A DNA stretch of 64,000 nt, taken from an uncultured Pseudomonadota bacterium. Lineage in GTDB: Bacteria > Myxococcota_A > Polyangia > Fen-1088. Location of the stretch: the NCBI GenBank assembly GCA_963831685.1, contig CAWHRJ010000004.1, positions 64,812 to 128,811 of the forward strand, read 5' to 3'. This document shows, piece after piece, positions 22,759 to 42,337 of this stretch. The translations under genes were made by a program, and so were the position numbers. The notes under the pieces were generated by a model. That model did no database searches and was not told where the DNA came from. It saw only the letters and a list, made by a program, of their open reading frames with translations. Position 1 is the first letter of the stretch. Every line of letters begins with the position of its first letter.

Positions 22759-22976
22759 CGCTGCCGCGGTGAGGTGGGCTATCCCGCTTCCCACCACTTT
22801 TCCCACCACCTCGGCGTAACGGGGGACGTCCAGGTTGCGCCTCGGTGTGTGTTTTCGGTCGGTTAGCACTGCCCGTTACGGTCGGTTACGCCCTCCGTCG
22901 ACTTGCAAAGGTGGACGGCGTCGACTGCGCGCGCGATCGAGCATGTCGAGGCGACGCTGGCCGCGCAGCGCGCGAA

Positions 22977-24965: not shown

Positions 24966-26200
24966 CCCCGCAGCACGTCGGCGATGCCAATCCGCCGCAG
25001 TTGCACGAGCGGCACCAGCGACACCACCACGGTGGCGGCGAAGACGACCGCCCCCAGATCGCCGAGCCGCTCCGCCGTCACCTGGGCGTGGATGACAGTG
25101 TCGATCGCGAAGCCCGAGACGGTCACGTCGGCGGCGTAGAAATGGCGCATGTCGAGACCATGCACCTGGAGCGCGTAGCCGGCGAGGCCCCCCACGGTCA
25201 GCCCGACGGCGCAGCCGAGGAGCCCGAGCAGGATCGATTCGACCAGCACCTGCTCGCCGAGGAGGGCCCTACCGGCGCCGAGCGCCAGCTGCACCGCGAA
25301 CTCGCGCGTCCGCTCGAGCACCGACATGGTGATGGTGTTGAAGACGGTGAACAGGCTCAAGAAGATGAGGATCCCCTGAAAGATGAAGTTCGATCCGCGA
25401 TCGATCCGGATATAGGCGGCCAGGTCGGGGAGCACCTCCTCCCAGGTGCGCACCGCCGCGCCGGCCGGTGCCAGCGCGCGCAGGGCGGGCAGCAGCCGGT
25501 CGCGATCGCGCGGATCGCCGAGCACGATCGCCAGGCGGGTGGCGGCGTCGGGCCCAAGCCCGTAGAGGCGGCGCGCGAAGGCGAGAGGGACCTGGGCGAG
25601 ATAGGTGTCCGCCTCGTCGGAGCCGACGCGGAAGAGGCCGGCGACGTGGACCAGCTCCTCGACCAGCGCGCCGCGCGCGTCGTTGGTGGTGACGACCAGC
25701 TTGTCGCCGACCCCCACCTTGAGGCGCTCGGCCAGCTTGACGCCGACGACGATGCGCGCGCCGTCCTCGGGCGCCAGGTAGCGCCCGGCGACGATCCGGC
25801 CGGCCAGCGGAGAGGTGGCGCGCTCGACGGCCGGCTCGACCCCCACCACGGCCGCGCCGACCGCCCCGGCCCCGGACTGGATCACCCCCTGGCCGAGCAC
25901 CATCGCCTTGGTCCGGGCGACGCCGGGCAGGCGGGCGATGCGCGCCCGCAGCGCGGAGACGCCCTCGATCCGCAGGTCGACGGCCGGCGCCGCCTCGTAG
26001 CGGGCGTCCTCGATGGTCAGGTGCCCGCCGTGCATCCGGGCGGCGTCGTCGACCAGCCCCCGGTAGACGCCGTCGCCGAGCGCGATGAAGAACACCGCCA
26101 GCGCGAGCGAAAAGCCGATCGCGCTCACGCTGATTGCCGTGCGGCGCCGGTTCCGGCCCAGCGATCGCCAGGCGATCTTGAGGAGGGTGCCCGCGCCCAT
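24962..26200 (-). CDS. ABC transporter permease, FtsX/MacB-like
   Basis: The N-terminal IAWRSLGRNRRRT motif, a large periplasmic loop and a C-terminal FtsX-type 3-TM bundle. Overlaps the ATPase start by 4 nt. Confidence 0.85.
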   Translation of the reverse strand: MGAGTLLKIAWRSLGRNRRRTAISVSAIGFSLALAVFFIALGDGVYRGLVDDAARMHGGHLTIEDARYEAAPAVDLRIEGVSALRARIARLPGVARTKAMVLGQGVIQSGAGAVGAAVVGVEPAVERATSPLAGRIVAGRYLAPEDGARIVVGVKLAERLKVGVGDKLVVTTNDARGALVEELVHVAGLFRVGSDEADTYLAQVPLAFARRLYGLGPDAATRLAIVLGDPRDRDRLLPALRALAPAGAAVRTWEEVLPDLAAYIRIDRGSNFIFQGILIFLSLFTVFNTITMSVLERTREFAVQLALGAGRALLGEQVLVESILLGLLGCAVGLTVGGLAGYALQVHGLDMRHFYAADVTVSGFAIDTVIHAQVTAERLGDLGAVVFAATVVVSLVPLVQLRRIGIADVLRG

Positions 26201-26205
26201 CGCCG

Positions 26206-27450
26206 CTACACCTGGTTCATGGCTTCGACGGGATCGAGGCGCGCGACCTTGATCGCCGGGTAGAGCGAGGCCAGCAGGCAGGCGGCGGTGGTGGCGACGA
26301 CCGCGTCCACCACCGCCTGCGGGCGCAGGTAGCCGCGCCAGACGGGATCGAAGGCGATCCCCGAGAAGGTGATGTCGCCGCCGCCGAGCGCCGAGAGATC
26401 GATCCCCACCCGCTGCATCCAGACCGCGCCCGCGACGCCCAGCGCGACCCCCAGCGCGTTGGCCACCAGCGAGAGCAGCGCGGCCTCGACGAGCACGTCG
26501 CGGAAGATGCGCAGCCGGCCGGCCCCCAGCGCCTTGACGAGCCCGTACTCGCGGACGCGATCGTGGGTCGCCATCAGCATCGTGTTGAGCACGCCGAGGC
26601 CGGCCGCCAGCAGGAAGACCAGCCCGAACAGGAACATCGTGGCGCCGCTCAGATTCTGCATGTCGGAGATCGCCGGCAGGAGCTGGCGCCAGGTGACGAT
26701 CTCCATCCCGCGCGCCGGCAGGTCAGCGTAGAGCGCGACCAGCGCCTCGGGCGACAGCCGGCCGCGGCTGTCGAGCGCGATCTCGTGGACCCGCCCGCCG
26801 GCGACGAACAGCCGGTCCAGCTCCTCGCGGTGCATGAAGACGGCGCCGCGGTCGATGTCGTCCCCCACCGTTTGCAGGATCCCCACCACCTCGTAGAGCT
26901 CGTTCCCCAGCGAGCCGTCGGCGGCCTGCACGACCGCCACCAGCTCGGAGCCGACGCTCGCCTCGAGGCTCCGCGCCAGCTTGCGTCCGAGCACCACCTC
27001 GGCGGCCGGCGCGTCGGACAGGAAGCGCCCCGCCGCCAGGTGCCGCGGAAGATCGAAAGTCGCCCGCTCGGCGGCCGGATCGACGCCCCAGAAGGACGCG
27101 CCCGCCGACTTCGCGCCCGCCGACAGGAGCCCGACGCCGAACGTGCGCGGCGCCGCGGGGATCCCGTGCGCGCGCGCCCGCGCCAGCAGCGCGTCCGGAT
27201 CCGAGACCGCTTGGTACATCGACCGCTCGGCGCGATAGCCGGCGGCGTGAATCTCCACCTCGCCCACCACCATCTCGGTCGCGTTGTGGATCGTCTGCCG
27301 GGCGAAGCCGGCGAACAGGGCGTCGGACGCGATGAGGACCGCGGTGTTGAACAGGACGGCGGCGACGGTGATTGCCGTGCGGCGGTTGTTGCGCAGCAGG
27401 TTTCGCCAGGCGATCCGCAACACGTGCAGGGGGCCCTGTCCCATCGTCAT
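26206..27450 (-). CDS. ABC transporter permease, FtsX/MacB-like (second copy)
   Basis: IAWRNLLRNNRRT, with the same architecture as 24962-26200. Confidence 0.85.
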   Translation of the reverse strand: MTMGQGPLHVLRIAWRNLLRNNRRTAITVAAVLFNTAVLIASDALFAGFARQTIHNATEMVVGEVEIHAAGYRAERSMYQAVSDPDALLARARAHGIPAAPRTFGVGLLSAGAKSAGASFWGVDPAAERATFDLPRHLAAGRFLSDAPAAEVVLGRKLARSLEASVGSELVAVVQAADGSLGNELYEVVGILQTVGDDIDRGAVFMHREELDRLFVAGGRVHEIALDSRGRLSPEALVALYADLPARGMEIVTWRQLLPAISDMQNLSGATMFLFGLVFLLAAGLGVLNTMLMATHDRVREYGLVKALGAGRLRIFRDVLVEAALLSLVANALGVALGVAGAVWMQRVGIDLSALGGGDITFSGIAFDPVWRGYLRPQAVVDAVVATTAACLLASLYPAIKVARLDPVEAMNQV

Positions 27451-27457
27451 GGGCGGC

Positions 27458-28204
27458 TCAGCGCTGCAGGTTCCGCAAGCTGAAGACGTCGTTCGGCAAG
27501 GGGACGCCCAGCTCCAGGTGCTGGTAGCGGATCTCCGTCATCTCGCCCGGCTTGTCGGCGGGGGTCATGCGGGTCGTGGCCGGGATCTCGCGGCCGCCCA
27601 GCTTGGTGACGTCCGCGAAGGTGAGCGTCCGGGCCAGCTTGCCGTGCTCGTCGTAGTAGGCGATCGAGAGGGGCATCAGATCCGCGCGCCGCACGGTCGC
27701 CACCAGCCGCCCCCAGACCACCGCGGCGTTCTCCTTGGGGACGCAGTCGATCACGATCTGGTCCGCGGGCGCGCCGGCCTTCACGGTGAGGTTGTAGTCC
27801 TGCGACATGCGGCTGGCCCGCACGAGATCGTCGTTGGTGAAGTGGCTCCCCATCCAGGCCCCTCCCATCATCGACGACGGAACCTTCACCACCCGCTGGA
27901 CGTTGGGGAGGTAGTTCCAGATGTTCGACCCCGCCTTGAGGGTGGTGGTCCCGCGCTCCTTGGCCGGGGCGGTGATGCGAATGAGCGAGTCGTCCTTCCC
28001 CTTGCTCCAGACCTCGAGCTCGAGGGTCCGGGTCCAGTGCGCGGTCACGACCTTCATGGTGAGCTGCCCGTGCGAGGAGATGCCGCGATAGAGATCGTCG
28101 ACCCGGTCCAGGATCGCCTTCGGATCGATCGGCGGCGGCGCGGCGCGCGCCGTCGGGGCCGCTGTCAGGACGAGCGCCGCAAGACCGAGGATCGCGAGCC
28201 GCAC
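27458..28204 (-). CDS. LolA-like outer membrane lipoprotein-sorting protein family
   Basis: Signal peptide, then LDRVDDLYRG...QLTMKVV...WTRTLELEVWSKG...SLIRITAPAKERGTTTLK...NIWNYLP, the typical LolA_like pattern. Confidence 0.8.
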   Translation of the reverse strand: MRLAILGLAALVLTAAPTARAAPPPIDPKAILDRVDDLYRGISSHGQLTMKVVTAHWTRTLELEVWSKGKDDSLIRITAPAKERGTTTLKAGSNIWNYLPNVQRVVKVPSSMMGGAWMGSHFTNDDLVRASRMSQDYNLTVKAGAPADQIVIDCVPKENAAVVWGRLVATVRRADLMPLSIAYYDEHGKLARTLTFADVTKLGGREIPATTRMTPADKPGEMTEIRYQHLELGVPLPNDVFSLRNLQR

Positions 28205-28488: not shown

Positions 28489-29514
28489 GTGGCGATCCTC
28501 AAGCGCTTCTGGCGCGGATGGGCGGTGAGCGCCCTCTTTGGTCAGACGACCAGGCGCGAGGGGCTCCTCTTTTCCTTGATCGTCGTGGCCGCCGTGGCCT
28601 GGCCGATTCTGCTGGTCGCCATCCTGGCACCAAAGATCGCCGTGCAGACGATCGCCCTCGTCCCACTCCCCGACGGGGTTCCCTCCTGGACCGTCCGGCT
28701 CGGTTGGATCGGTTTGGCGTTGCTGATTCCGCTGATCGTCGGTGTCGCCGTATCGGTCAAGACGCCGCTGGCGATGCGCCAGGGGTCGCCGGTCCTGCGT
28801 GTTCTGCGCGGCTTTCCCATCACCGTCGGTCTGGCCAGCGCCTTCGCGATCATCTTCGTGTCCGTGCCGATCATGCGGGCCGCGGCGCTCGTGCGTCGAC
28901 AGAAGATCACCGACATCCCCCTCATCATGAGCGCCTCCGCCTATCACGAAGTCGCGGCCAAGATCTGCGAAGTCCTGAACCGCCAGGGCCTTTCGCTGCA
29001 CTCGGCAGAACCTGCCTGGTGGGTCTCCGCGCCGATGCGCCTGCTCACCTGGCTGGGCGGCGAGGCCTTTCGGTCGCATGTTCCGAAACGCTTCGAGCAC
29101 TTCGTGACCCACGACCTCGCCCTGTCGCTCTACCCGAGCGGCCTCGTCCTGCGGGGGAAGGCGGCGCGGCTGACCTGGGCGCGCGGGCTCGTCGCCGAGG
29201 CGGTCGTGCACACGGAGGGGCTGCAGACGACAGATCCCAAGGCGCAGGCCCTGGAGCAGCGCCTCCGCCCGCTGTGGAGGAGCTACGACCTCGATCCAGC
29301 TCTGAACGCGAAGAGCACCGACGTGGCGCGGGAGCTCGCCCGGGTCACGCGGGAGCTCCGGACCCTGCAGGTCGACTGGGACGACTGGCAGGTGCTCTAC
29401 CGGCAGATCTTGCAACTGGGTCGGGCCGCGCACGGCGAGCGACAGCTCCTCGACGCTGAGCCACCACCCCAGGCGGGGCTGACGCCCGATTCCCCGACCT
29501 CGTCGCGGCCATGA
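28489..29514 (+). CDS. hypothetical integral membrane protein
   Basis: Four or five clear TM helices followed by a soluble helical C-terminal region. Composition is far more protein-like than the competing antisense ORF 28261-29433. Confidence 0.55.
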   Translation: MAILKRFWRGWAVSALFGQTTRREGLLFSLIVVAAVAWPILLVAILAPKIAVQTIALVPLPDGVPSWTVRLGWIGLALLIPLIVGVAVSVKTPLAMRQGSPVLRVLRGFPITVGLASAFAIIFVSVPIMRAAALVRRQKITDIPLIMSASAYHEVAAKICEVLNRQGLSLHSAEPAWWVSAPMRLLTWLGGEAFRSHVPKRFEHFVTHDLALSLYPSGLVLRGKAARLTWARGLVAEAVVHTEGLQTTDPKAQALEQRLRPLWRSYDLDPALNAKSTDVARELARVTRELRTLQVDWDDWQVLYRQILQLGRAAHGERQLLDAEPPPQAGLTPDSPTSSRP

Positions 29515-29743: not shown

Positions 29744-30240
29744 GTGTTGAACGACGTGGTGGTGATCGGCGCTGGCGTAGCCGGCCTGACGGCGGCGCGC
29801 GAGCTAGCCCGGCAGGGGCTCGCGGTGACGGTGGTCGAGGCGCGCGACCGGACGGGTGGCCGGGTGTACACCCTCCGCGACTTCTGTGGCCATCCGGTGG
29901 AGGGCGGCGCGGAATTCGTGCACGCGGCCGACGCCGAGACGTGGCCGGAGATCCATGCCGCGCGACTTGCCGTGCGCAGGTGCGCGCTCACCCGCCGCAG
30001 CATGTTCAACCTCGGAGGGCGGACCCGTTGGCTGCCGTGGCTCCTCCTGCACCCCGGCGCATGGTCCGCGTTTTCGATCCTCCGTCAGCTCGCGCGCGCC
30101 CGCCCGCCAGATATGTCCGCCCGCGACTTCATCAACCGTCTCGGCTACCGCGGTCGGGCCCGGCTACTGGCGGAGATGGTCTTCATGGCGCACCTCCCCG
30201 GCATCGCTGAAGAAATTGGTGTGCTGAGCTTCCTCGCGGT
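29744..30240 (+). pseudogene. truncated paralog of the FAD-dependent amine oxidase gene at 34097-35416 (N-terminal about 160 codons only)
   Basis: [37 protein letters not shown]...GGAEFVH... aligns at about 80 percent (by eye) with the full-length gene up to EEIGVL. Similarity then stops, and the reading frame runs antisense into the neighbouring gene. Confidence 0.65.
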
Positions 30241-30373
30241 CGGGACCGGGACCGGAGCCGCCCTCGTCGTTTTACGAAGGCTGGCCGGACCAAGAACGTC
30301 GGTGGCGAACGTGGTCGAGGTCAACGACTGGCGAGCCGAACTGCGCCGAGAAGGCACCGATCGCGGGAAGGCC

Positions 30374-32728
30374 TCAGGCAGCCCGTTCCGCCGCGATGTA
30401 ATGACGCTCGGCGGCTGCGCGCCAGACAGGCAAGAGATCATTTACGAACACCTCGTGCCAGGTGGGCGCGTGCACGAGCGACCACGCGTGGGCGTCGCGA
30501 CCCATCGCCGCCGCCCGTTCCGGGTCGGCAAGCAGCTCGCCCAGCGCCTCCGCCCACGCCTGCGGCGTCGCCTCGCGCGAGACGAGCCCGGTCTTGCCCT
30601 CGACGACGAAACGTTCGCTCCCGCTGCCCGCCGCCACCACCAGCGGCAAGCCGGAGCTGGTCGCCTCGAGGACCGCGTTCGACAGCTCCTCGATGAGCGC
30701 CGGTTGAGCGCAGACGTCGGCTGACGCGTAGACGCGCGCCAGCGTGGCCGGGGCGAGCACGCCCGGACGGGTGACGCGATCGCCGAGGAGCGCCGTCACC
30801 GCGTCGCCATCCGGTCCCTGGCCCGCGCAGAAGAGGTGCAGATCGGCGCCCTCTGCGACGAGCTGGCGGACCGCGCGTGCCAGCACCAGCACGTTCTTGA
30901 TGGCGTCCAGGCGGCCCACGAAGATCACCACCCGTCGCCCGGGCGGGATCCCGAACGTCGTCGACAGCCAGGCGCGGTCGCGCCGACCCGGGTTGAAAAT
31001 GTCGCGCTCGATCCCCCGGTGGAGCAGGCCCACCCGTTCCGGCCCCAGCAGGGCGGCGAGCCGTGCGCGGTCCTCGGGCCGCGACGCCAGCACGACGGCG
31101 CAGCGGCGGTGGTGGTCGTCGAGCAGGCGTTGCATGTGCGCCTCGGCGGCCCGGGCGACGGCCCAGCGGTCGAGGAGCAGGCGCGACAGCCGACCCGAGC
31201 CGGCGAGGCGCTCGACGGTGGCTTCGGTGAACACCCGCGTGTAGTAGGGCGTCGTGGTGTGCACCGAGCTGGTGAGCGGAATGCCGTGCCAGCGCGACAC
31301 CCGCGCCGCCGTTCGGGCCGAGGCGAACGTCCCGTCGGTCGTGTGGATGACGTCGTATCCCCGCAGCCGGGACGTCAGCAACGGATTGTGGGGCGCCAGA
31401 TCGGTGTGGCCGGGCATGTCGGACAGAAACGGGAGGCGGGCGCTGCTGAACAGCGGCGGATGAATCTGGTAACGGACATGGGGCCCAAGGAGATGCGTCG
31501 CGTTTCGATCGCCCAAGAAATGCACCGTCAGGTCGATGTCCGCGCCAGCCTCGACTGCCGTCGCCGCCAGCCGCTCCCAGGTCTTGACGTGACCGCCCGC
31601 CGTCGGGCTCCAGTAGAGGTCGACGAGCACGCCGACACGCAGGCGCGCCGTGGGGCGCATGACCGGCAGGCCCGTCAAGCTGACTGCGCGTGGCTCCCGG
31701 CGTCTCTCCTTCATCTGGCGCCTCGACCAGAAAGTAGCGATGGCGTGTCGCTCCGCAATCACCCAGGCGGCGATGGCCGGCGCGCCGACCACCAGCTCGC
31801 GCCCGCGCTTGACGACCCCCAGTGCCAGGGCCGCCGGCGCCGCGACGCCGAACGCGGCGCCCACCGCCACCAGCGCCCCCTCCTGCACCCCGATGCCGCC
31901 AGGAACCACGAACGCCGCGCCCCGCGCCGAGGCGGCCAGACTCTCGATGGCCAGCGCCGCCGCCCAGCCGATCGGCCGCCCGAGCAAGCGAAGGACCAGC
32001 CAGGTCTCGACCACCTGGGCCAGCCAGGCCGCGAGGTGCCACGTCGCGCTGACCAGCACCACGTGGGGACGCCGCCGGATCGAGAACAGCGCCTGATCGA
32101 TGGCGGCGCCCCCGGTTCTCAACCTGGTCGCCAGGCGGTCGTTCAGGTGCAGAGACAGCTCCGTGAGCAATCGTCCCACGCCGACCCGGGCCACCAAGAT
32201 CAGCAGCGCGGCGAACCCGGCTCCGATGCCGATCACGATCGCCAGCCACCCGAGGTGGTTGCGCACCGAGGCGGCGGACGAGGCGCCAAAAATCAGCGCG
32301 GCCGCGCCCAGGAAGGTGAACAGCACCTGGGTGAACGCTCCAATGGCGACGTCGGCGACCATCGCCGCGGTCGCCTCCCCTGCGGGAACGCCTCCCGCGG
32401 TCAGCAGGCGGGCCCGGGCGAAATCGCCGCCGATCTGGGCGGTCGGCACGAGCGCGTTCACGGCCTCGCCGATCCAGCGCAGCCGCAGCGTGATCGCCCA
32501 GCCCAGCCGGTGCTTCCCGAGCAATACGCCCCAGGCTGCCGCGTTCAGCTCGACCGGGACGATCCGGTACAGCGAGGCAGCCATCAGCGCCCATCCGCCT
32601 CCGGCACCCAGGATCGCGAGAACATCGCCCGTGCGGGATCGGATGGCGATGAAGATCAGCAGCGCCACCCCGAGCAGGCCGCCCAGGGCAGCGATCCGGT
32701 ACTTCCGAGAGACCAGATCCCCCTGCAT
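30374..32728 (-). CDS. fusion protein: N-terminal flippase-like (lysylphosphatidylglycerol-synthase-TM/HpnL-like) domain + C-terminal GT4-type glycosyltransferase
   Basis: The N-terminal roughly 330 aa are polytopic, with conserved [12 protein letters not shown]. The C-terminal half has a GT-B/GT4 look ending in [19 protein letters not shown]...VVEGKTGLV (E-x7-E region). Confidence 0.8.
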
Positions 32729-33951
32729 CAGTACGGATACCCGAGCATGACGTAGGCCCTCACACCCTCGCCGCCGTAGGCGACATCGACGCGACCGAGG
32801 ATGTCCGGATGAATCCAGGCACGCAGGCCGGCTCCTCCCGCGACGCGCACGTGCGACCAGGGCGGCGCCCCCTCGCCGTAGACCTGACCCACCGCGACGA
32901 ACGGATCAAAGCGCCAGTCGGTCACCACACCAAAAATGTGGGTCTGGAACAGCTTCAGGCGCTGCTCGGCCTCGACCTCCCAGGCGCCCATGTCGATGAA
33001 CCGGTCCTCCTGGAACCCGCGAAAGAGGACCTCGCCGCCGAGGCTCGCCTGGTCGTAGAACGGCACGTCCGTGCCGAAGACCTGCATCCAGTAGACGCGC
33101 GCGGCTCCCTGCAAGAACGAGAGCTCGGGCAGGAGCCCGCGCGCGGTCCAGCCGAGCTGGGCGAATTTGCCGACTCCGGTGATGCCCTGGGCCACGTTGC
33201 CGGTGAGCTCCGTCGCGAACCCGACCGGCGAGTAGTCGCCCTCGGGGCGCGTGTCGTAGCGGATCGAAAATCCAGCGCGGACGAAGGCCGAGCCGTCGAG
33301 CCCGGGCGCGTCAGGGTAAACGTCCTGGGTCTCGGGCAAGCCCGAGATGGCGTGCCGTTCCGGGCGATCCCCGCGCACCTCGCCGTAGAGCGCCAGGTTG
33401 AGGTTCGAGGTCAGATTCCACCCGAGGCGGGCGTTTGCGGTCGCGAAGAGCCGCGTGTAGCTCGACTCCCCGTCCTCGGGCGTGTTGGGGCCGAGGCCGA
33501 AGTACCGGTAGAACAGGTTGCGCCGCACGCGCAGGACCAGATTGAAGGTGAACTCGCCCGGCGTGCGCCGATCGTCGTCGTACTCGAACCAGATCGATCG
33601 ATTGATGACCGTGCTCGCCGAGACGATGAAGTGCCACGACCGCAACAGCGCCAGGTACCGGTAGTAGCGAAACGTGCCGGTGAAGTGCGCGGAGCTGTTC
33701 CAGCTGGCGCTCGGCGCGAGGATGGAGCTCACCCAGTTGTCCTGCGACCACATGAAGACGGGCATGAAGCCGTAGGTGCTCCCCTCGTTGGGAGACGTCG
33801 TGTACATCGGCAGCGGGAAGAAGCGCATCCCGGCGGCAGCCGGCCGGCTTCCCACGGCCAGGCAGGCGGCGAGCAACGCCAGAGCGACCCGCCGGGCGCT
33901 CACGCCCCAGCCGGGCGCATCGGGTCTTCGATCCCGGATGCCATCAATCAC
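32728..33951 (-). CDS. Omp85/surface-antigen (D15)-like outer-membrane barrel without POTRA domains
   Basis: Signal peptide and beta-strand periodicity. The C-terminal GGAGLRAWIHPDILGRVDVAYGGEGVRAYVMLGYPY resembles the Bac_surface_Ag end. The stop overlaps the next start (TGATG). Confidence 0.7.
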   Translation of the reverse strand: MIDGIRDRRPDAPGWGVSARRVALALLAACLAVGSRPAAAGMRFFPLPMYTTSPNEGSTYGFMPVFMWSQDNWVSSILAPSASWNSSAHFTGTFRYYRYLALLRSWHFIVSASTVINRSIWFEYDDDRRTPGEFTFNLVLRVRRNLFYRYFGLGPNTPEDGESSYTRLFATANARLGWNLTSNLNLALYGEVRGDRPERHAISGLPETQDVYPDAPGLDGSAFVRAGFSIRYDTRPEGDYSPVGFATELTGNVAQGITGVGKFAQLGWTARGLLPELSFLQGAARVYWMQVFGTDVPFYDQASLGGEVLFRGFQEDRFIDMGAWEVEAEQRLKLFQTHIFGVVTDWRFDPFVAVGQVYGEGAPPWSHVRVAGGAGLRAWIHPDILGRVDVAYGGEGVRAYVMLGYPY

Positions 33952-34096
33952 CTGCGCGCTCGTCGGTGCGACGCCTCCGTCGGAGGGCGGGGAAGCAGAC
34001 GCAAACAGAGTGACGATACGGACGAAAGGACGCTCCGGAAGACGGCTCGCGTTCGAGACGGCGCCCGCCGTGCGCGTCGCTCCCGCGACGCCTTCG

Positions 34097-35416
34097 TCAA
34101 ACGACGAGGGCGCTGCCCTTGCTGACGGCGAGGAAGCTCAGCACCTCCGACGCCGCACGTAGGCCGCTGACGTAGGCCGCCTGAACCGTCTCGGCGATCG
34201 TCGAGGTGGCCGTGGCGGCGCCGGCCCAGAACAGCGCGGCGGTGTCGGCCGCGGCCAGACGGGCCCGGGCCCCGCGACCGCCGGGACGCGTGAACGTGTA
34301 ACCCCCACGGGCGAATGGGTCCGTGCTCCAGTCGATGCGGCGGTGCGCGAGCAGCAGGCGGCCCGGGTCGACACCCGGAAAGAGCCGCGCCAGGTCCGCG
34401 AGCACGACGGCCACTGCCTCGTCCTCCGACAACAGTGAGAGGCGGGAGGCGCGCGGGCCGATGCAGTAGGCGGTGAGCACCGCCGGCGTTCGGCGGCCAC
34501 CCTCGAGGGACGGCCAGTAGAGGGTGACCGGCCCGGTGCCGCAGCAGAGGTTCGCGAGCCGGGCCGGCCAGAACGGCTCGCGGAAACGGAGGAGAACCTT
34601 CATGACCGGACCCATCACGAGATCCCCCAAAGCCCGCCGCTTGCTCTCGGGCAGCGACGGCACGAACTCCACGGCCCCCGACGCGAGGACGCCGACCGGC
34701 AGGGTGACGATGGCCGCGCGTGCAGAGAGCGCTCGCCCATCAGCCGCGGCCACGGCCGCGCCTTCCGGCGTCCAGCACACGGTCGCGATCGGGAAGCGGT
34801 GGAGGACGTCGAGCCCGCGCGCGATGTGGGCCACCAGGCGATCGTAGCCGTTCGTAATGCGATGGAAGGATCCCATGTAGAGGTCGAGGATCCGATCCTC
34901 GAGCAGCCCCAGCACCCCAATCTCGTCGGTGAGGCCGGGCAGGTGCCCGGTGAACACCATCTCCGCCAGCATCCGGGCCCGGCCGCGGTAGCCCAGGTGG
35001 TCGATGAAGTCACGCGCCGACACGTCCGGCGGGCGGGCGCGCGCCAGGTGACGGAGGATCGGGAAGGCCGGCCAGGCGCCGGGGTGCAGCAAGAACCACG
35101 GCAGGAAGCGGGTGCGGCCCCCGAGGTTGAACATGCTGCGCCAGGCGGGCGCGTATCGGCGCACGGCAAGCCGCCCCTCGCGGATCTCCGGCCAGGTCTC
35201 GGCGTCGGCCGTGTGAACGAACTCCGCGCCGCCCTCCACCGCGTGGTCACCGAAATCGCGGACGGTGTGCACGCGTCCCCCGATCCGGTGGCGCGCCTCG
35301 ACCACCGTCACCGCAAGCCCCTGCCGTGTCAGCTCGCGCGCCGCGGTCAGGCCGGCCACTCCAGCGCCGATCACGAGCACGTCGCGGGCGGCCTGCCCTC
35401 GACGACCCGAGCGCAC
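34097..35416 (-). CDS. FAD-dependent amine oxidase family protein (HpnE/phytoene-desaturase-like fold)
   Basis: [27 protein letters not shown] and GGAEFVH. The C-terminal FWAGAATA...TVQAAYVSGLRAASEV is typical of flavin amine oxidases. GTG 35416 is preferred; the upstream ATG 35485 adds a 23-aa Arg/Gly-rich stretch. Confidence 0.85.
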   Translation of the reverse strand: MRSGRRGQAARDVLVIGAGVAGLTAARELTRQGLAVTVVEARHRIGGRVHTVRDFGDHAVEGGAEFVHTADAETWPEIREGRLAVRRYAPAWRSMFNLGGRTRFLPWFLLHPGAWPAFPILRHLARARPPDVSARDFIDHLGYRGRARMLAEMVFTGHLPGLTDEIGVLGLLEDRILDLYMGSFHRITNGYDRLVAHIARGLDVLHRFPIATVCWTPEGAAVAAADGRALSARAAIVTLPVGVLASGAVEFVPSLPESKRRALGDLVMGPVMKVLLRFREPFWPARLANLCCGTGPVTLYWPSLEGGRRTPAVLTAYCIGPRASRLSLLSEDEAVAVVLADLARLFPGVDPGRLLLAHRRIDWSTDPFARGGYTFTRPGGRGARARLAAADTAALFWAGAATATSTIAETVQAAYVSGLRAASEVLSFLAVSKGSALVV

Positions 35417-35580
35417 GGCTACATTCCCCCCGCGCAGCTCCGGATGCCCGCGTCCAGTCCGAAAGGGTCGCCCTGGGGCAGCCATTGTCGAGCGAGAGCC
35501 CACCGAATCGTCACCAGGCCGAGGACGAGCAGGGCAACCAGCCGAACCAGGCTCATGGTTCCAAGTTGGCGACGCCGGCC

Positions 35581-36621
35581 TCAGCGGGCAAGCGACCCGC
35601 GCGCCAATGCGACCGAGGCTGAGACCTTCTTCACGTAATCGTGGTCGATGAACCAGCTCACGGCGCGTTCGAACGCCGGCTCGATCGGGCTCTGGGGGAA
35701 TCCCAGCTCGCGGACCGCCTTGCCGGGGTCGAAGAACATCATCGACTTCGACATCCGCACGCCGTCGAGCGGCACGCGTGGATCGCGGCCCAGCCAGCGG
35801 GCCAGGGGCTCCTCGAGGTGTGCGATGGCGAGCGGAACCCAGTGCGGCAGCTTGAGGCGCGGCGGTCGCCTCCCCGTCAGCCGGCCGAGGAGCTCGAGCA
35901 TCTGTCGCAGGGTGAGGTTCACCGCGCCGAGGATGTAGCTCTGCCCCGGACGTCCCCGCTCCGCAGCCAAGAGGTGTCCGAGCGCCACGTCGCGCACGTC
36001 GACCAAGTTGAGACCAGTGTCGACGTAGGCCGGAAGTCGTCCGTTGAGGAAGTCGACCACGATTCTTCCGGTGGGTGTCGGTCTGGCGTCCCGCTCGCCG
36101 ATCGGCGTCGACGGGCTCACCACCACGATGGGGAGGCCACGATCGATCCAGCTCTCCACCACCCGCTCGGCGAGGAACTTGCTGCGCTTGTAGTCGCCGA
36201 CCATGTCCTCGAGCTCGGCGCGGGCGTTCTCGTTGGCGGGCCGGGGGCCGCCGAGCGCGAGCGTGCCGACGGAGCTGGTGTAGATGACCTTTCTCACGCC
36301 CAGCTCGGCGGCGAGCTCCAGCACGTTTCGCGTGCCGTCGACGTTGCTGCGGTAGATCTCGGCGGGATGTCGCGCGTAGAGCCGGTAGTCGGCGGCACAG
36401 TGAAACACCAGCTCGGCTCCGGTCATCGCCCGTCGCAGGGACTCCCGGTCGCCGAGATCGCCGACGACCCAATCGATCGGCAGGTCCTCCAGATCGGCGC
36501 GGTAACTGGTCTGCCGGCAGAGACAGGAGAGGCTCTCGTTACGCGCCAGGAGAGCTCGCGCTACGTGCGATCCGATGAACCCCGTCGCCCCGGTCAAGAA
36601 TACCCGCATGGACGCCGCCAC
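35581..36621 (-). CDS. NAD-dependent epimerase/dehydratase, hopanoid-associated sugar epimerase (HpnA)-like
   Basis: VFLTGATGFIGSH Rossmann motif, YKRSK catalytic dyad, and a dihydroflavonol-reductase-like extended SDR. Confidence 0.85.
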   Translation of the reverse strand: MAASMRVFLTGATGFIGSHVARALLARNESLSCLCRQTSYRADLEDLPIDWVVGDLGDRESLRRAMTGAELVFHCAADYRLYARHPAEIYRSNVDGTRNVLELAAELGVRKVIYTSSVGTLALGGPRPANENARAELEDMVGDYKRSKFLAERVVESWIDRGLPIVVVSPSTPIGERDARPTPTGRIVVDFLNGRLPAYVDTGLNLVDVRDVALGHLLAAERGRPGQSYILGAVNLTLRQMLELLGRLTGRRPPRLKLPHWVPLAIAHLEEPLARWLGRDPRVPLDGVRMSKSMMFFDPGKAVRELGFPQSPIEPAFERAVSWFIDHDYVKKVSASVALARGSLAR

Positions 36622-36690
36622 CCCGTTCTTGGTTACCTTAAGAACGGGCCCGCAGGAGAGAACCCGGGGAGATTATGGGAACTGGGAGTG

Positions 36691-37605
36691 TCAGTCGGCG
36701 TTCGAGAGCCCGAGCGCGGCAGAGGTACACGGAGCGAGGTCGCGCGAGATCTCGGCGGCGACCGAGGCCACCTCGCTCCGCGACAGCTTGGCGCCGAGGC
36801 CGCGCTCGGACAGAATTCCCAGATTCGATCGGGCCAGTCCGGCAATGAAAGCGTTGAAGGCGACGAGCCCCGGCGCCGTTCCGGCGCGGCGCAAGAGCTC
36901 CACATACTCCTCGGCCCGGGTCAGAGCTTGGCCGGTCAGCGCGAGCACCGTGTGGAGGTCGACGTCGGTGGGAACGTAGACGCGCCCTTCCGCTGCGTCG
37001 CGCGGAGCATCCTTGAGAATGTTCACCAGCTGTAGCCCCTCTCCGAAGCTGGAAGCTCGGTTGCGGAGCTCTTCCGCCGAGGCGGCCAGCTCCGCCCGGT
37101 CGAGCAGGTAGAGCTCGGTCAGCATTTCCCCCACGATCCCGGCGACCGAATAGCAGTAGTCGCGGAGATCGTCGATGTCCGACAGGGTGAGGCCATTTCT
37201 CTCGTCGGAGCGCCGGACGAACTGTCGCATGCCCTCGACGCTTCGGATGAGGTGCCGCCGAATGGCCACCCGCGCGGGCAGCGGCAGGGCGCCGAAGTCA
37301 CGCAGGACCAGCGGGAGTCTGGCCAGCAGCTCTCGGTATCCGGCGTGCTCGAGAGGCGGCTCGCGCAGACACTCGCCGGCCAGTTCCTGCGCGGCCGTCG
37401 GGTCCTGGTCGAGCAGCCCGACGAATCGGCCCAGGGCCTCGAGCCGCCGCTCGCGCGTCCAGAGGACAGCATCCTCGAACGTGTCGGCGATCCGGAACAG
37501 CAAGTAGGCAATGCCGACTTGATTCCGCGTTGGTTCCGGCAAGAGCGGGATGGCCAACGCGAACGTCCGGCTCGTCCGTTGTAGCAGATCGTCAATGACC
37601 GACAT
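36691..37605 (-). CDS. squalene/phytoene synthase family protein
   Basis: SRTFALAIPLLP, the first Asp-rich region FRIADTFED, YCYSVAGIVGEML, and the second region NILKDAPRDAAEGRVYVP. Start set at ATG 37605 (MSVIDDLLQRTSRTF). Confidence 0.85.
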   Translation of the reverse strand: MSVIDDLLQRTSRTFALAIPLLPEPTRNQVGIAYLLFRIADTFEDAVLWTRERRLEALGRFVGLLDQDPTAAQELAGECLREPPLEHAGYRELLARLPLVLRDFGALPLPARVAIRRHLIRSVEGMRQFVRRSDERNGLTLSDIDDLRDYCYSVAGIVGEMLTELYLLDRAELAASAEELRNRASSFGEGLQLVNILKDAPRDAAEGRVYVPTDVDLHTVLALTGQALTRAEEYVELLRRAGTAPGLVAFNAFIAGLARSNLGILSERGLGAKLSRSEVASVAAEISRDLAPCTSAALGLSNAD

Positions 37606-37672
37606 GGGCAAAAGGCTAAGTCTGCCCTTGCGGAGCACAACCCGAGTGGCCCCTCTCTCCGACGGGGGCTCG

Positions 37673-40420
37673 ATGAGCACAAGACTGAGTGGGGCGTTCG
37701 TAGAACGGAGGCCAAGCAACGCTGCGCCGCCGAGGCCAGTCGCTCGTCTGGGCTCCCATGCTCGGTGGCGCCGCTCTGCAACGTGCATCGCGCTGATGAT
37801 TGCGCTGGCGCAGATCCCCCGAGCAGGCGCGGCGACACCGGCGGCGCCAGCATTCAAGCCGCCACGTCTGGTTCATTTCGTGGAGGCAGTCCTCCCCCCG
37901 GCGGCCGCGCGTCGCGAGGGAGAGGTCGTCCTCTCCCTCGACGTGGACGAGACGGGCAAGGTCGGCGCGGTCGAGGTCGCCAAGCCAGCGGGCGGAGAAG
38001 GGGGCGAAGTGCTCGACCAGGCGGCCCTCGCAGCGGCTCGCCAATTTGTTTTCGAGCCGGGAGAGGCCGACGGACATCCGGTTCCGGTGCGGGTTACGTA
38101 TAGCTATCGGTTCGTGTTCAAGCCCGATCTGCGTCCGCTGCCTGCCCCAGCCCCGAACGGGGTGCAGTCTCCACACGCCCCCGTCGTCCCGCTTACGGGG
38201 ACCGTGCGCCGGCGCGGTGATCGGACGGCCGTCGCTGGCGCGGTCGCGCTGGTCTCCGTAGCGCCGGGGGACGAGCGGCGGGCCATCACCGACGAACAGG
38301 GACGATTTTCGTTCGCTGCGCTCCCCGTCGGCGAGCACAAGCTGGCGCTGCGGGGCGCGGCGATTTTCCCCGTCGACGTCATGGTCGCGCTGCACGAAGG
38401 GAAGTCCACCGAGCTCAGCCTGTTCGTCGATGTCAAGGAGCGCTACGCCTCCACCGTGCGCGGGCAGCGCGCCGTCGTCGAGACCGTCGAGCAGACGCTC
38501 ACCACCGCAGAGATCCAGCACATTCCCGGCACCCAGGGCGATACGCTCAAGGCCGTTCAAAACCTGCCGGGCGTCGCGCGGGCGCCGTTCGGGATCGGCC
38601 TTCTGCCGGTCTGGGGCTCGGCGCCGGCCGACACGCGCGTCTACATCGACGGCGTGAACGTGCCCGTCCTCTATCACTTCGGCGGCCTGCGCTCGACCGT
38701 GAACAGCGAGATGATCGACGCGCTCACCTTCGTCCCCGGCGGGTACCAGGCCGACCATGGGCTCGGTCTCGGCGGGATCGTGGACGTCGATACGCGGAGG
38801 CCGCGCACCGACGGGCTGCACGGCTACGCGCAGATGGACCTGCTCGACGGCTCGCTCATGCTCGAGGGGCCCATCAGTAAGACATTGTCGTTCGCGGTGG
38901 CCGGACGGCGAAGCTGGATCGACGCCACCTTGCCTCTCTTCACCACCAGCACCTTCCAGCTCTCGCCGGTCTACTACGACTATCAGGCGCGGCTCTCCTG
39001 GCGGCCTTCCTCTTCGGGGCGGGACGTGGTCGACCTGTTCCTGTTTGGCTCGGATGACAAGCTCAGCCTCCTGGCCCGGGTCAAGAACGATGCGCTCGAC
39101 GCCACCGTCGACTCGCACACTTTCTTCCACCGGGCGCTCCTCAGCTGGGCGCACCGCTTCGATCGGGGGCGCACGCTCACGGTCACCTCGTCGGTCGGCT
39201 ACGACGCCCCCTTCGGGCTGGGGGTGGCGTTCGGCCAGACGCCGACCTCGCTCGACGAGCGCACCTTCGCCTATGCGACGCGGGCGGTCGGCCGCTGGCC
39301 GATCACCAGCACGCTGCGGCTCGATGGCGGCGTCGACTTCGAGGGAAACCGCTGGCAAGTCGACCGCGCCGGCTCGCCCGCGGCCGTCACCGATCTGGTG
39401 GGCGGCACCGGCGCCGGGGGGCTGGGCGCCAACGGCGGTTTCAGCGGCGCCGGCAGCGGCTACGCCATCGACGACCTGACGCTCTACACGAACAACGTCG
39501 CGCCGTTCGTGACCGCCACAATCGCCTTCTTCGGGCGCCGCTTCACCGTCACGCCGCAATTTCGCCTGCAGGTCATGACCTTCACCGGCTACCAGGGGAT
39601 GCCGGCGTCGTTCGACCGGGCGTTCGTCTCGCCCGAGCCGCGCCTGGCGCTGCGCTACCAGCTCACCCCGCGCGTGGCGCTCAAGGGCGCGGTGGGCCTC
39701 TACGCGCAGCCGCCGGATCCGACGGCCTTCTCGCAAGACTTCGGCAATCCGAACATCCTCCCCGAGCACGGCACGCAGTATGTCGTCGGCGCCGAAGGGG
39801 AGCTCTGGCCGGGACTGACGGCCGAGATCGATCTCTTCTGGAAGAACCTGCGCGACCTGGTCGTCCCCGGGCAAAATCCCGGCGATCCGCTGCTCACCAA
39901 CGACGGCATCGGGCGCGCCTACGGCGGAGAGGTCCTCGTTCGCCAGAACCTGGGCAAGCGCCTCTTCGGCTGGCTCGCCTACACGCTCTCGCGGAGCGAG
40001 CGGAAGGATCATCCCGGTCAGAGTTGGTATCCGTTCGAGTTCGACCAGACCAACATCCTCACCGTGATGCTCAGCTACTTCCTGCCGCGCGGGTTCGAGG
40101 TGGGCGCGCGCTATCGCTACGTGACCGGAGATCCCTATACGGCCGTCACCGGCTCGTTCTACGACTCGGTCTCCGACAAGTACACGCCGCTCTCCGGCCC
40201 CACCAACAGCGCGCGCCTCGGCCCCTTCAACCAGCTCGACCTGCGCGTCGACAAGGTCTTCACCTTCGACCGCTGGCGCTTCTCCTTCTACCTCGACGTC
40301 CAGAACACGCTGCGCGCCGACAACCCCGAGGCGGTCGGATACAACTACAACTACACGATCGCGCATCCCATCACAGGGTTGCCGCTGCTGCCGATTCTCG
40401 GGATCCGGGGGGACTTCTGA
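37673..40420 (+). CDS. TonB-dependent-receptor-like outer membrane protein with N-terminal TonB_C-like and carboxypeptidase-regulatory-like domains
   Basis: TonB_C-like block (VEAVLPPAAARREGEVVLSLDVDETGKV...RVTYSYRFVF) and CarboxypepD_reg-like block (LTGTVRRRGDRTAVAGAVALV...GRFSFAALPVGEHKL). Plug motif GDTLKAVQNLPGVAR, a long barrel, and terminal GIRGDF. The start is uncertain (ATG 37673 chosen; signal-like CIALMIALAQIPRAGA). Confidence 0.8.
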   Translation: MSTRLSGAFVERRPSNAAPPRPVARLGSHARWRRSATCIALMIALAQIPRAGAATPAAPAFKPPRLVHFVEAVLPPAAARREGEVVLSLDVDETGKVGAVEVAKPAGGEGGEVLDQAALAAARQFVFEPGEADGHPVPVRVTYSYRFVFKPDLRPLPAPAPNGVQSPHAPVVPLTGTVRRRGDRTAVAGAVALVSVAPGDERRAITDEQGRFSFAALPVGEHKLALRGAAIFPVDVMVALHEGKSTELSLFVDVKERYASTVRGQRAVVETVEQTLTTAEIQHIPGTQGDTLKAVQNLPGVARAPFGIGLLPVWGSAPADTRVYIDGVNVPVLYHFGGLRSTVNSEMIDALTFVPGGYQADHGLGLGGIVDVDTRRPRTDGLHGYAQMDLLDGSLMLEGPISKTLSFAVAGRRSWIDATLPLFTTSTFQLSPVYYDYQARLSWRPSSSGRDVVDLFLFGSDDKLSLLARVKNDALDATVDSHTFFHRALLSWAHRFDRGRTLTVTSSVGYDAPFGLGVAFGQTPTSLDERTFAYATRAVGRWPITSTLRLDGGVDFEGNRWQVDRAGSPAAVTDLVGGTGAGGLGANGGFSGAGSGYAIDDLTLYTNNVAPFVTATIAFFGRRFTVTPQFRLQVMTFTGYQGMPASFDRAFVSPEPRLALRYQLTPRVALKGAVGLYAQPPDPTAFSQDFGNPNILPEHGTQYVVGAEGELWPGLTAEIDLFWKNLRDLVVPGQNPGDPLLTNDGIGRAYGGEVLVRQNLGKRLFGWLAYTLSRSERKDHPGQSWYPFEFDQTNILTVMLSYFLPRGFEVGARYRYVTGDPYTAVTGSFYDSVSDKYTPLSGPTNSARLGPFNQLDLRVDKVFTFDRWRFSFYLDVQNTLRADNPEAVGYNYNYTIAHPITGLPLLPILGIRGDF

Positions 40421-41262
40421 TGTCGCCCTCGCGGATTCTGGCTTCCGTCTGCAGCGCCGGCTGCGTCCTCGCCTGGCTGGGTGGATGCCAGACCTTCTCC
40501 GATCCACCGGTCAGCTTCGTCGCCGGGCTGCGCGTGCTCGGCATCAAGGCCGAGCCGCCGCAGATCGCGCCGGGCGCGAGCACGACGGTGGCGGCGCTGG
40601 TGGTCGACACCTACGGCGGAACGCCCGCGGCGTCCTGGAGCCAGTGCCTCCTGCCGCCGTTGCCGGGGAAGACGGTCAACACCGCCTGCATCGACGGGTC
40701 GGCGGGGGCTGAGCTCCAGCCGATCGGCGACGGTCTGACGATCCCCTTCGTGATGCCGCAGGTCGCGGCCGCATCGCTGGGCGCCCCCGACGCGACGGGC
40801 GGCGTCTATCTGCCGCTCGTGGCGGCCGTCGACGCGAGCCCGCAGACCCTCACCGCCGTCTATCGGTTGCGCCTCGCCGACGGCGCCCCGGCCAACACCA
40901 ATCCGACCATCGCCGACGTCTTCTCCGTCGACGCGGCCGGCACGATGTCGGCGCTCGACCCGACGGCGCCGACGCCGGTGCAGTCCGGCGGGGCGCTCAG
41001 CCTGAAAGTGACTTTCGCGCCCGACAGCCCCCAGATCTACACCGCCGCCGACGGGACGGTGACGACCGAAACGCTCACCACCTCCTGGTTCTGCACCGCC
41101 GGTGAGCTGAGCTTCGAAAAGACCAGCGCCACCCAGCCCGAGACGGTGTTGCACCTCGACCAGCGCCTGCCGGCGGCGGGCGCGCAGATCGATCTCTACG
41201 CCGTCGCCCGCGACGAACGCGGCGGCACCGACTTCGCACATCGCACCCTGTTGCTCCAGTAA
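40420..41262 (+). CDS. hypothetical lipoprotein co-transcribed with the receptor
   Basis: The ATG overlaps the receptor stop (TGATG). Has a lipobox (LGGC). No recognised domain. Confidence 0.6.
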   Translation: MSPSRILASVCSAGCVLAWLGGCQTFSDPPVSFVAGLRVLGIKAEPPQIAPGASTTVAALVVDTYGGTPAASWSQCLLPPLPGKTVNTACIDGSAGAELQPIGDGLTIPFVMPQVAAASLGAPDATGGVYLPLVAAVDASPQTLTAVYRLRLADGAPANTNPTIADVFSVDAAGTMSALDPTAPTPVQSGGALSLKVTFAPDSPQIYTAADGTVTTETLTTSWFCTAGELSFEKTSATQPETVLHLDQRLPAAGAQIDLYAVARDERGGTDFAHRTLLLQ

Positions 41263-41286
41263 AGGAAGGAAAAGGAAGTAACGAAG

Positions 41287-41901
41287 ATGGATGTTTCGGC
41301 AAGGTTCCTCGCGTTCACGCTCCACGGCGCCACATGGGTGCTCTGGCTGCTGATCGCTCTCAGCGTCATGAGCATGGCCGTCATGCTCGAACGGCTCTGG
41401 TACTTTCGCGCTCACCGGGTCGGCCGGCGCGATCTGGCGGCGGAGATTCGGACGCTGCTGCGAGAGTGCGCCGATCGCGGGGAGGGCGGACCAGCCGCGC
41501 CGATCGAGATGACGGCCGCGATCGAGGGAGCCAAGACGCGCGAGCGCTTGCGCCTCGAGCGGCGGCTCCCCTTTCTGGCAACGCTCGGCTCCAACGGGCC
41601 GTTCGTCGGTCTCTTCGGGACGGTGCTGGGGATCATCAAGGCCTTTCACGATCTGGCGGCCACGGCAGGAACGGCCGGCGCGGGCGCCTCGACCGTGATG
41701 GCGGGGATCTCGGAGGCGCTGGTGGCCACGGCGATCGGCCTCCTGGTCGCCATCCCCGCCGTCGTCGCCTTCAACTACTTCAGCCGCCGGGTCCGCGTGC
41801 GGATGGCGGAGGTCGACTGGCTGGCGCACCTAGCTGCGGAGGACGTTCAGTCGGGCTGGGCGCGCACCGACGAGCAGCAGCCGTTGCGGCGGAGCGCCTG
41901 A
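41287..41901 (+). CDS. exbB: MotA/TolQ/ExbB proton-channel protein
   Basis: Three TM helices and GPFVGLFGTVLGIIKAF. Confidence 0.9.
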   Translation: MDVSARFLAFTLHGATWVLWLLIALSVMSMAVMLERLWYFRAHRVGRRDLAAEIRTLLRECADRGEGGPAAPIEMTAAIEGAKTRERLRLERRLPFLATLGSNGPFVGLFGTVLGIIKAFHDLAATAGTAGAGASTVMAGISEALVATAIGLLVAIPAVVAFNYFSRRVRVRMAEVDWLAHLAAEDVQSGWARTDEQQPLRRSA

Positions 41902-42332: not shown

Positions 42333-42337
42333 GGAAT

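Follow-up and report, generated by a model that had tools for sequence, protein, structure and literature searches.

A gene block spanning positions 30353–43120 in a 64,000-nucleotide stretch of DNA from an uncultured bacterium of the Polyangia (assembly GCA_963831685.1, contig CAWHRJ010000004.1, positions 64,812–128,811; the whole stretch is called the window here) is probably the part of a Polyangia-type hopanoid cluster that supplies squalene and accessory functions, with shc, hpnH, hpnG and hpnR probably located elsewhere in the genome. The block contains six minus-strand genes, which the original prediction had read as a cyclase-less lipid operon, and a divergently transcribed Ton cluster. 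We conclude that it is real, conserved and selected, and that it derives by rearrangement from a lineage-specific variant of the hopanoid cluster, of which it is a fragment, and is not a new cyclase-less pathway. Its product is most likely a hopanoid derivative rather than a novel isoprenoid glycolipid that has not been cyclised. The block was assigned to a dispersed hopanoid cluster because its orthologues adjoin the genes for squalene-hopene cyclase (SHC), HpnH, HpnG and HpnR in other metagenome-assembled genomes (MAGs), and because HpnR adjoins the block in a relative that is ~91% identical over it. Hopanoids are major bacterial membrane lipids and are widely used as geological biomarkers. 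The G+C content of the window is ~69%, and its nearest named homologues are in Polyangia MAGs (Myxococcota).

The relatives compared here (denoted by L numbers) were contigs encoding homologues of the window's synthase, together with the loci from a scan with its outer-membrane barrel. In L004 and in the contig carrying P0109, where the synthase is 58–62% identical, the genes for the synthase, the barrel, HpnA, HpnL and a glycosyltransferase of family 4 (GT4) occur in one cluster, which also holds HMG-CoA reductase, SHC, HpnH, HpnG and HpnR. The orthologous synthase is the only SQS_PSY gene in these full hopanoid clusters. The assignments in L004 were well above the model cutoffs for SHC (TIGR01507, 664 bits, cutoff 431), HpnH (382 bits, cutoff 225) and HpnR (809 bits, cutoff 650). 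Orthologues of the GT4, HpnL, HpnA, squalene synthase (SQS), Omp85, receptor, lipoprotein, ExbB, ExbD and TonB genes were found in L004 with 42–70% identity, and only the oxidase and a 45-aa open reading frame (ORF) of the window had no counterpart there. The layout of L013 is the same as that of L004, with the full hopanoid set and a fused HpnL-GT4. As a separate observation in L004, the gene overlapping the end of HpnR (19211–19666) passed the cutoff of the AAC(3)-I aminoglycoside N-acetyltransferase model (208 bits, cutoff 200), which is unusual beside hopanoid genes, and its product might acetylate an amino sugar or an amino-hopanoid instead.

Closer to the window, L027 and L028 showed 91–92% nucleotide identity over one collinear block of 12.8 kb, which corresponds to window positions 30353–43120 and ends exactly at 43120. 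The gene next to TonB in L027 is HpnR, the hopanoid C-3 methylase, with 413 bits for the visible half of the gene. Furthermore, the MAG MFD01916.bin.2.64 has an SQS/Omp85/HpnL-GT4/HpnA cluster with no cyclase within 10 kb, and its contig carries SHC together with a fused HpnH-HpnG at a distance of ~20 kb from the barrel gene. This fusion of HpnH (radical SAM and DUF3463) with HpnG (PNP_UDP_1), at 8155–9927 of L026, is 590 aa long and adjoins SHC. In Alphaproteobacteria, the genomes that lack hpnH also lack hpnA and hpnL (PMC12583986). A cyclase encoded elsewhere is favoured because of the HpnR gene beside the ~91% relative, the split arrangement in MFD01916.bin.2.64, the purifying selection on the operon and the tracking of hpnH by hpnA and hpnL, and it is likely that the source genome encodes SHC outside the window. 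To judge from these comparisons, being cyclase-less would be a property of the locus in the window and not of the system.

The genes in the window were called from third-position G+C and ORF translation. The six minus-strand genes run in one direction over 30374–37605 in the order SQS_PSY synthase (36691–37605, 304 aa; PF00494, 133 bits), HpnA (35581–36621, 346 aa), 45-aa single-helix membrane ORF (35419–35556), flavin amine oxidase (34097–35413), Omp85-family barrel (32728–33903, 391 aa) and HpnL-GT4 fusion (30374–32728, 784 aa), and this order and these coordinates agreed with the original prediction. The intergenic gaps in the 5′ to 3′ direction of the operon are 69, 24, 5 and ~190 nt, and the barrel and HpnL-GT4 genes overlap by 1 nt. 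No terminator-like site was found in these gaps; all the terminator-like hits were intragenic and not above expectation, and a promoter scan of the locus found nothing. Co-transcription of the six genes is plausible. The same gene order was present in at least seven independent assemblies (L005, L007, L009, L011, L027, L028 and, partly, L010), and the dN/dS values of 0.04–0.35 for every operon gene, including the 45-aa ORF, indicated that all of them are under purifying selection. Because of this shared order and these dN/dS values, the cluster is not considered a chance arrangement.

The best NCBIfam match of the synthase was TIGR01559 (squal_synth), which at 78.5 bits is below its cutoff of 287 and is the sole model covering residues 6–215; the other scores were 55 bits for HpnD (cutoff 279), 47 bits for HpnC (cutoff 250) and 38–39 bits for CrtB (cutoffs 480–550). 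The SQS of T. cruzi and human were the best PDB matches, and CrtM aligned only at residues 144–211 with 35 bits. In a plasmid collection, the best annotated homologues were farnesyl-diphosphate farnesyltransferases of Burkholderia, Cupriavidus and haloarchaea, with HpnD and CrtM being marginal. The Asp-rich motifs DTFED and DAPRD as well as YCYxVAGIVG were invariant in 27 homologues. The protein is thus like the bacterial Sqs (PMC7306690) in its best profile, PDB and annotated-homologue matches and in both Asp-rich motifs, albeit highly divergent, sharing ~35% identity with Burkholderia Sqs across two thirds of its length and having ~90 C-terminal residues that could not be aligned to the solved SQS structures. 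The best match is therefore a divergent Sqs-type, one-enzyme squalene synthase, a predicted function that stands below the equivalog cutoff. Grouping of the synthase with carotenoid CrtB had been named as an outcome that would speak against the glycolipid idea; by model, PDB and homologue matches it was neither CrtB nor CrtM, and the idea survived on this point.

Sqs is known as a one-enzyme alternative to HpnCDE for making squalene (PMC7306690). As to the HpnCDE route, the window has one synthase and no HpnC/HpnD pair, and its oxidase fails the HpnE model; a second synthase or any other isoprenoid gene was not found in the 64 kb. The original prediction was right in counting a single synthase in the window but had treated it as an anomaly, which it is not, because an enzyme of Sqs type makes squalene alone and needs no HpnC/D/E set.

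Both HpnA, a hopanoid-associated extended short-chain dehydrogenase/reductase (TIGR03466, 443 bits, cutoff 368), and the HpnL part of the fusion (TIGR03476, 239 bits, cutoff 196) passed the curated NCBIfam cutoffs, and here the earlier identifications were upheld, including that of an HpnL-like flippase domain and a GT4 in one 784-aa ORF. The best PDB match of HpnA was 3wj7 (286 bits), and its dN/dS was 0.15–0.19.

The HpnE-like label given earlier to the oxidase did not hold. The protein matched PF01593 in full length (model positions 1–443, 205 bits), but scored only 57 bits with the HpnE model (cutoff 283) and 36 bits with the crtI_fam model (cutoff 238), in both cases through the N-terminal FAD-binding motif alone. 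Its PDB neighbours were LSD2 (126 bits), LSD1, spermine oxidase, nicotine oxidase, putrescine oxidase and monoamine oxidase (MAO), and over the full length it resembles these LSD, spermine oxidase and MAO enzymes. In the alignment with LSD2, the flavin-adjacent Lys is kept in GPVMKVLLRF, and we take it to be the position of LSD1 K661. HpnE identity was ruled out by the model scores and the PDB neighbours, and the protein is predicted to be a true flavin amine oxidase of the MAO/polyamine oxidase (PAO)/LSD clade. The gene is absent from the clusters in L002, L004, L013, L014 and L020 and is missing in most orthologous clusters; amine oxidase genes are infrequent beside sqs in general (PMC7306690). 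The 45-aa ORF always accompanies the oxidase and was intact and 70–93% identical in L005, L007, L009, L010, L011, L027 and L028, with dN/dS of 0.04–0.24. Its stop codon is 5 nt upstream of the GTG start of the oxidase, and the two genes are apparently translationally coupled. The amine oxidase and its 45-aa partner could, speculatively, be a clade-specific accessory acting on an amino head group.

The barrel protein gave 27 bits with PF01103 and 80 bits with NF047779 (cutoff 200). In the AlphaFold2 (AF2) model (pLDDT 89.6, pTM 0.83), the signal peptide is followed directly by the barrel with no periplasmic domain, and the best Foldseek matches were the barrels of BamA, TamA and Sam50 (E 5e-10; probability 1.0 for BamA and TamA). 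The model agrees with the POTRA-less Omp85 barrel proposed earlier and places the protein in the noNterm subgroup of the Omp85 superfamily. Like the noNterm Omp85 proteins (PMC4104836) and the Leptospira paralogues (PMC11358297), it has an Omp85-type barrel and no POTRA or other periplasmic domain; it differs from them in being a narrow subfamily located beside hopanoid genes. The family comprises ~380 proteins among 5.8 billion, all of roughly 380–430 aa. When the barrel alignment was searched against the GTDB species representatives, 19 loci were obtained, all in MAGs labelled as Polyangia, Myxococcales, Myxococcota, "Deltaproteobacteria", "uncultured proteobacterium", Oligoflexia and, in one case, WWE3. 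Hopanoid or hopanoid-cluster genes were present within 10 kb of the barrel in 16 of them. SHC was found at this distance in six loci (L013 and L020–L024) and HpnH in five (L013, L018, L020, L023 and L024), and even the barrels with only 43–46% identity (L021–L024) adjoin SQS and SHC. No literature tying any noNterm Omp85 to a lipid pathway was found, and a hopanoid-linked POTRA-less Omp85 subfamily appears to be undescribed.

In the HpnL-GT4 fusion, the HpnL part covers residues 11–326 and the GT4 part, with matches to GT4 Pfam families, residues ~360–784. The transmembrane half was also above the cutoff of the TIGR00374 flippase-like domain (46.8 bits, cutoff 43.2); a hydropathy count of its helices was unusable for this Ala-rich protein. 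The GT4 half was closest to MshA (PDB 3c4q, 80 bits). The same 784-aa fusion was present in L007–L011, L027 and L028, and related fusions in L013 (76% identical to that of the window), L014 and L020. In L002, L003, L004 and L012, HpnL and GT4 are separate, adjacent genes, and full-length fusions were very few in a set of 1.8 billion cluster representatives, in which most of the related proteins are stand-alone GT4 (~430 aa) or HpnL (~330 aa). An origin of the fusion from a long-read frameshift was rejected, as the same 784-codon ORF is found in L027, an Illumina assembly, and also in four more loci, with dN/dS of ~0.3. Such errors are probable in other genes: in the long-read MAG contigs L005 and L028 the receptor is split into short gene calls, in L005 also the barrel and the GT4, and receptor, barrel and GT4 are intact in L027, the near-identical relative of L028. 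The L005 and L028 assemblies probably carry frameshift errors, and the gene fragments in them should therefore not be taken as pseudogenes.

PF03706 is the flippase module of MprF, in which it is fused N-terminally to a cytoplasmic synthase (PMC8131360). The HpnL-GT4 fusion similarly has an N-terminal PF03706 transmembrane module and a C-terminal cytoplasmic enzyme that transfers a head group, whereas its catalytic domain is a GT4 and not a tRNA-dependent aminoacyl transferase, and it scored 15 bits with NF033480 (cutoff 600). It is accordingly classed, as a prediction from its domains, as resembling MprF in architecture and not as a member of the MprF family. By analogy, the recurrence of the fusion suggests that HpnL may flip the product of the glycosyltransferase. 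The HpnL-GT4 fusion appears to be undescribed.

The downstream part of the operon has a history different from that of the upstream part. When the window was compared with L003, in which the synthase is 88% identical, the part from TonB to HpnA was collinear with 87.5% nucleotide identity, whereas the barrel and HpnL-GT4 were only ~66% identical and the oxidase was inverted. The order in L003 is HpnA, Omp85, HpnL, GT4 and PIG-L, followed by a convergent oxidase. Directly 3′ of the HpnL-GT4 stop codon, the window retains two relics of this arrangement. The one is a 72-nt end of a PIG-L deacetylase gene (30294–30365, minus strand) with 87.5% identity to the PIG-L end of L003. The other is an internally deleted amine oxidase (29744–30243, plus strand), in which 166 N-terminal codons with 87% nucleotide identity to the L003 oxidase, kept in the original orientation, run on into a short segment similar to the C-terminal codons of the gene, the middle ~270 codons (an estimate) being gone. 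The drop in identity and the two relics show that an older set of Omp85, HpnL, GT4 and PIG-L gave way to a cassette made up of the 45-aa ORF, the oxidase, the barrel and HpnL-GT4. The barrel of the window is 77% identical to that of L002, in which the synthase is only 63% identical, and 51% identical to that of L003. In L001 and L006 there is no cassette next to SQS and HpnA, and L025 has another barrel type. Within one clade, with synthases of 78–90% identity, the segment 3′ of HpnA therefore varies between the window and L003, L025, L001 and L006: it is a cassette of the window type, a ~50% identical cassette including PIG-L, a third barrel type or nothing. By analogy, such a variable segment between conserved flanks would resemble a variable surface-structure locus.

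On the other side of the synthase, the Ton cluster of the plus strand consists of a TonB-dependent-transporter-like protein (37673–40420), a conserved 280-aa lipoprotein with an LGGC lipobox and no Pfam or NCBIfam match (40420–41262), and ExbB, ExbD and TonB (41287–43120; PF01618, PF02472 and PF03544). The start of the receptor-like gene is 67 nt from the start of SQS and is supported by conservation across loci. The region in between (37605–37673) is strongly conserved across the relatives, which suggests that it may be a shared control region for both genes. The receptor-like protein contains TonB_C, CarboxypepD_reg, a weak Plug (19.5 bits vs 23.9) and a barrel, with a partial TIGR01783 match of 23.6 bits. 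Its gene adjoins SQS in 18 of the related loci examined; in some loci the Ton set diverges from the synthase, in L004 it is co-directional, 3′ of the barrel, and the lipoprotein lies between receptor and ExbB in every related locus with a Ton cluster. This adjacency, surviving rearrangement, suggests a functional link of the Ton set with squalene synthase; an ordinary uptake system retained by synteny is the alternative. Oar shows that TonB-dependent transporters of myxobacteria can also export (PMC6434023). The receptor-like protein is similar to the Oar-type transporters (PMC6434023) and to the myxochelin receptor MxcH in its predicted CarboxypepD_reg, Plug and barrel domains and in having an own ExbB, ExbD and TonB set, and its N-terminal region matched the start of the MxcH model. 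It differs in the TonB_C-like domain at its own N-terminus, in the orphan lipoprotein next to it and in its location by squalene and hopanoid genes. A full-text search of a limited literature collection for hopanoids together with TonB-dependent transporters gave nothing relevant, and a Ton system conserved beside a hopanoid cluster appears to be undescribed.

Compared with the hpn clusters of Zymomonas, Rhodopseudomonas palustris and Burkholderia (PMC12583986), the block is alike in that HpnA and HpnL are recognised and a predicted squalene-synthesis gene adjoins them, and the clusters of the relatives are alike in holding SHC, HpnH, HpnG and HpnR together. It differs in having one Sqs-type enzyme instead of HpnCDE, in lacking shc, hpnH and hpnG at the locus, and in having a POTRA-less Omp85, a GT4 in place of the GT2-type HpnB/HpnI, an amine oxidase and an adjacent TonB system. 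HpnN, HpnM, HpnS and HpnT were not seen in the loci examined. The latest survey of the genes around shc names hpnL, hpnM, hpnS and hpnT and calls the function of HpnL unclear (bioRxiv 10.1101/2025.07.29.667474); a term search of it gave no mention of Omp85 or TonB. The proposals for hopanoid transport to the outer membrane that were found in the literature concern Proteobacteria only.

A parallel also exists to the route from HpnI through HpnK to HpnJ, which, as reportedly described by Schmerk et al. in 2015 (cited in PMC12583986), leads to bacteriohopanetetrol (BHT)-glucosamine and the cyclitol ether. The older cassette in L003 is like the HpnI/HpnK route, in which GlcNAc is put onto the hopanepolyol and then deacetylated, in that an MshA-like GT4 is paired with PIG-L; the GT4 and PIG-L families are not orthologous to HpnI and HpnK. 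The pairing recalls, as an analogy, the logic of MshA/MshB and of HpnI/HpnK. The window differs further, having lost PIG-L save for the 72-nt relic, and the B12 radical-SAM genes near the block in the relatives score as HpnR and not as HpnJ.

From homology and gene context, a working order of steps may be proposed. The Sqs-type enzyme would convert two molecules of farnesyl diphosphate to squalene, and, as in the relatives, a cyclase encoded elsewhere with HpnH and HpnG would lead to bacteriohopanepolyols. The cytoplasmic MshA-like GT4, probably with a UDP-HexNAc donor, would glycosylate the lipid, for which HpnA may supply or modify the sugar. The N-terminal HpnL module, judging from the fusion and the MprF analogy, could then carry the product across the inner membrane to its outer leaflet, and the POTRA-less barrel, in view of its conserved linkage, might act on the same class of lipid at the outer membrane. 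A broader and only tentative idea is that Polyangia and related Myxococcota have an envelope machinery of their own for hopanoids, in which HpnL flips for the GT4, the barrel places or exposes the lipid in the outer membrane, the TonB transporter and the lipoprotein are perhaps involved, and the cassette is exchanged like a surface-antigen locus.

Several findings weigh against assigning the block to a dispersed hopanoid cluster. None of shc, hpnH, hpnG and hpnR was found in the 64-kb window by tblastn, with Pfam on the rest of the window, and no SHC was found within 10 kb in the closest relatives L001, L003, L005–L007, L009, L011 and L025. The SQS and GT4 scores are far under the equivalog cutoffs, and no hopanoid gene was found near the barrel in three of the 19 barrel loci. 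The same cassette is present without SQS and HpnA in L010 and L008, in a housekeeping neighbourhood of LeuRS and DUF3014 genes, where no mobile-element genes flank it. In addition, HpnA and HpnL are biochemically unknown in function according to the literature, which leaves both still open (PMC12583986; bioRxiv 10.1101/2025.07.29.667474). The missing cyclase in the window and in the closest clade would be explained if the organism itself were cyclase-less and the operon made, glycosylated, flipped and exported a non-cyclised, squalene-derived or other isoprenoid glycolipid, and squalene synthesis enzymes without a cyclase do occur in some cases (PMC7306690). We regard this as unlikely, since the more distant orthologous clusters all have SHC, HpnH and HpnG, the hopanoid methylation gene HpnR adjoins the block in the ~91% relative, HpnA and HpnL track hpnH in Alphaproteobacteria, and a split arrangement with SHC farther along the same contig exists. 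Of the original prediction, the absence of SHC and HpnH from the window was confirmed, but HpnG and HpnR as well as these two are found in orthologous clusters; likewise, a conserved lipid-related unit, to which a GT4-flippase and a barrel are suited, was supported for the glycolipid said to be made, glycosylated, flipped and delivered to the outer membrane, but not the nature of the product.

The cassette could also have been brought next to SQS and HpnA as an unrelated unit, the latter two serving hopanoids and the cassette modifying and flipping another lipid, for example a glycolipid of the GlcNAc- or GlcN-phosphatidylglycerol type, in an MprF-like manner. This would agree with the separate history of the cassette (its nucleotide identity to L003 is ~66%, that of the flanks 87%), with its occurrence by LeuRS and DUF3014 genes in L010 and L008, and with the GT4 scores of 68 bits for GlcNAc-phosphatidylglycerol synthase and 83 bits for MshA, both far under cutoff. 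It appears improbable when set against the trio of Omp85, HpnL and GT4 amid SHC and HpnH in L004, L013 and L020, the barrel alone adjoining SQS and SHC in the distant loci L021–L024, and the transmembrane domain passing the cutoff of the hopanoid-specific HpnL model. A C30 carotenoid pathway of the staphyloxanthin kind, with a CrtM-like synthase, a CrtN-like desaturase and a glycosyltransferase, has a superficial domain parallel in the SQS_PSY protein, the Amino_oxidase-family flavoprotein and the glycosyltransferase of the operon. This is very hard to credit, because the synthase matches Sqs over residues 6–216 and CrtM only over 144–211 (35 bits), with 38–39 bits for CrtB, and because the oxidase is LSD/PAO-like, matches the CrtI family in the FAD motif only and is missing from most orthologous clusters. 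The carotenoid reading, whether as CrtM/CrtN or as CrtB/CrtI, was rejected as contradicted by the synthase and oxidase matches.

With the block read as part of a dispersed hopanoid cluster, the HpnL-GT4 fusion would be a testable lead pointing to HpnL as the flippase for a lipid whose head group has just been made, as in MprF. Should the Polyangia and related Myxococcota have an envelope machinery of their own, the fusion would be a clue to HpnL function, and the machinery would contrast with the proteobacterial candidates HpnN, HpnM, HpnS and HpnT. The narrow POTRA-less Omp85 subfamily, whose tie to hopanoid genes extends over Myxococcota and lineages near them, and the TonB system holding its place by the squalene synthase despite rearrangements, are two further testable leads. 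For genome mining, the case indicates that a cluster with HpnA, HpnL and Sqs in which no cyclase is found can be one piece of a hopanoid pathway whose genes are dispersed.

Among the other genes in the window, a LolCDE-like export unit on the minus strand (22876–28204), ~2 kb from the operon, comprises a LolA_like protein, two FtsX/MacB_PCD permeases, an ABC ATPase and a 458-aa orphan protein. It was considered as a part of the system and rejected, there being no orthologue near any related locus. A 341-aa orphan protein (28489–29514, plus strand) lies between this unit and the operon. Farther away, a 631-aa ORF (60411–62306, plus strand) has an unusually high second-position G+C of 0.70, matches no Pfam family and may encode a protein that is of low complexity or rich in repeats, and a 594-aa protein (45062–46846, minus strand) combines a cupin domain of the cysteine-dioxygenase type with an FAD/NAD(P)-binding oxidoreductase domain. 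The regions 6828–9982 and 12698–13069 encode a DUF1592/DUF1595/DUF1588/DUF1585 protein, a DUF1552 protein and a PSCyt1 cytochrome-like protein, families that are better known from Planctomycetes.

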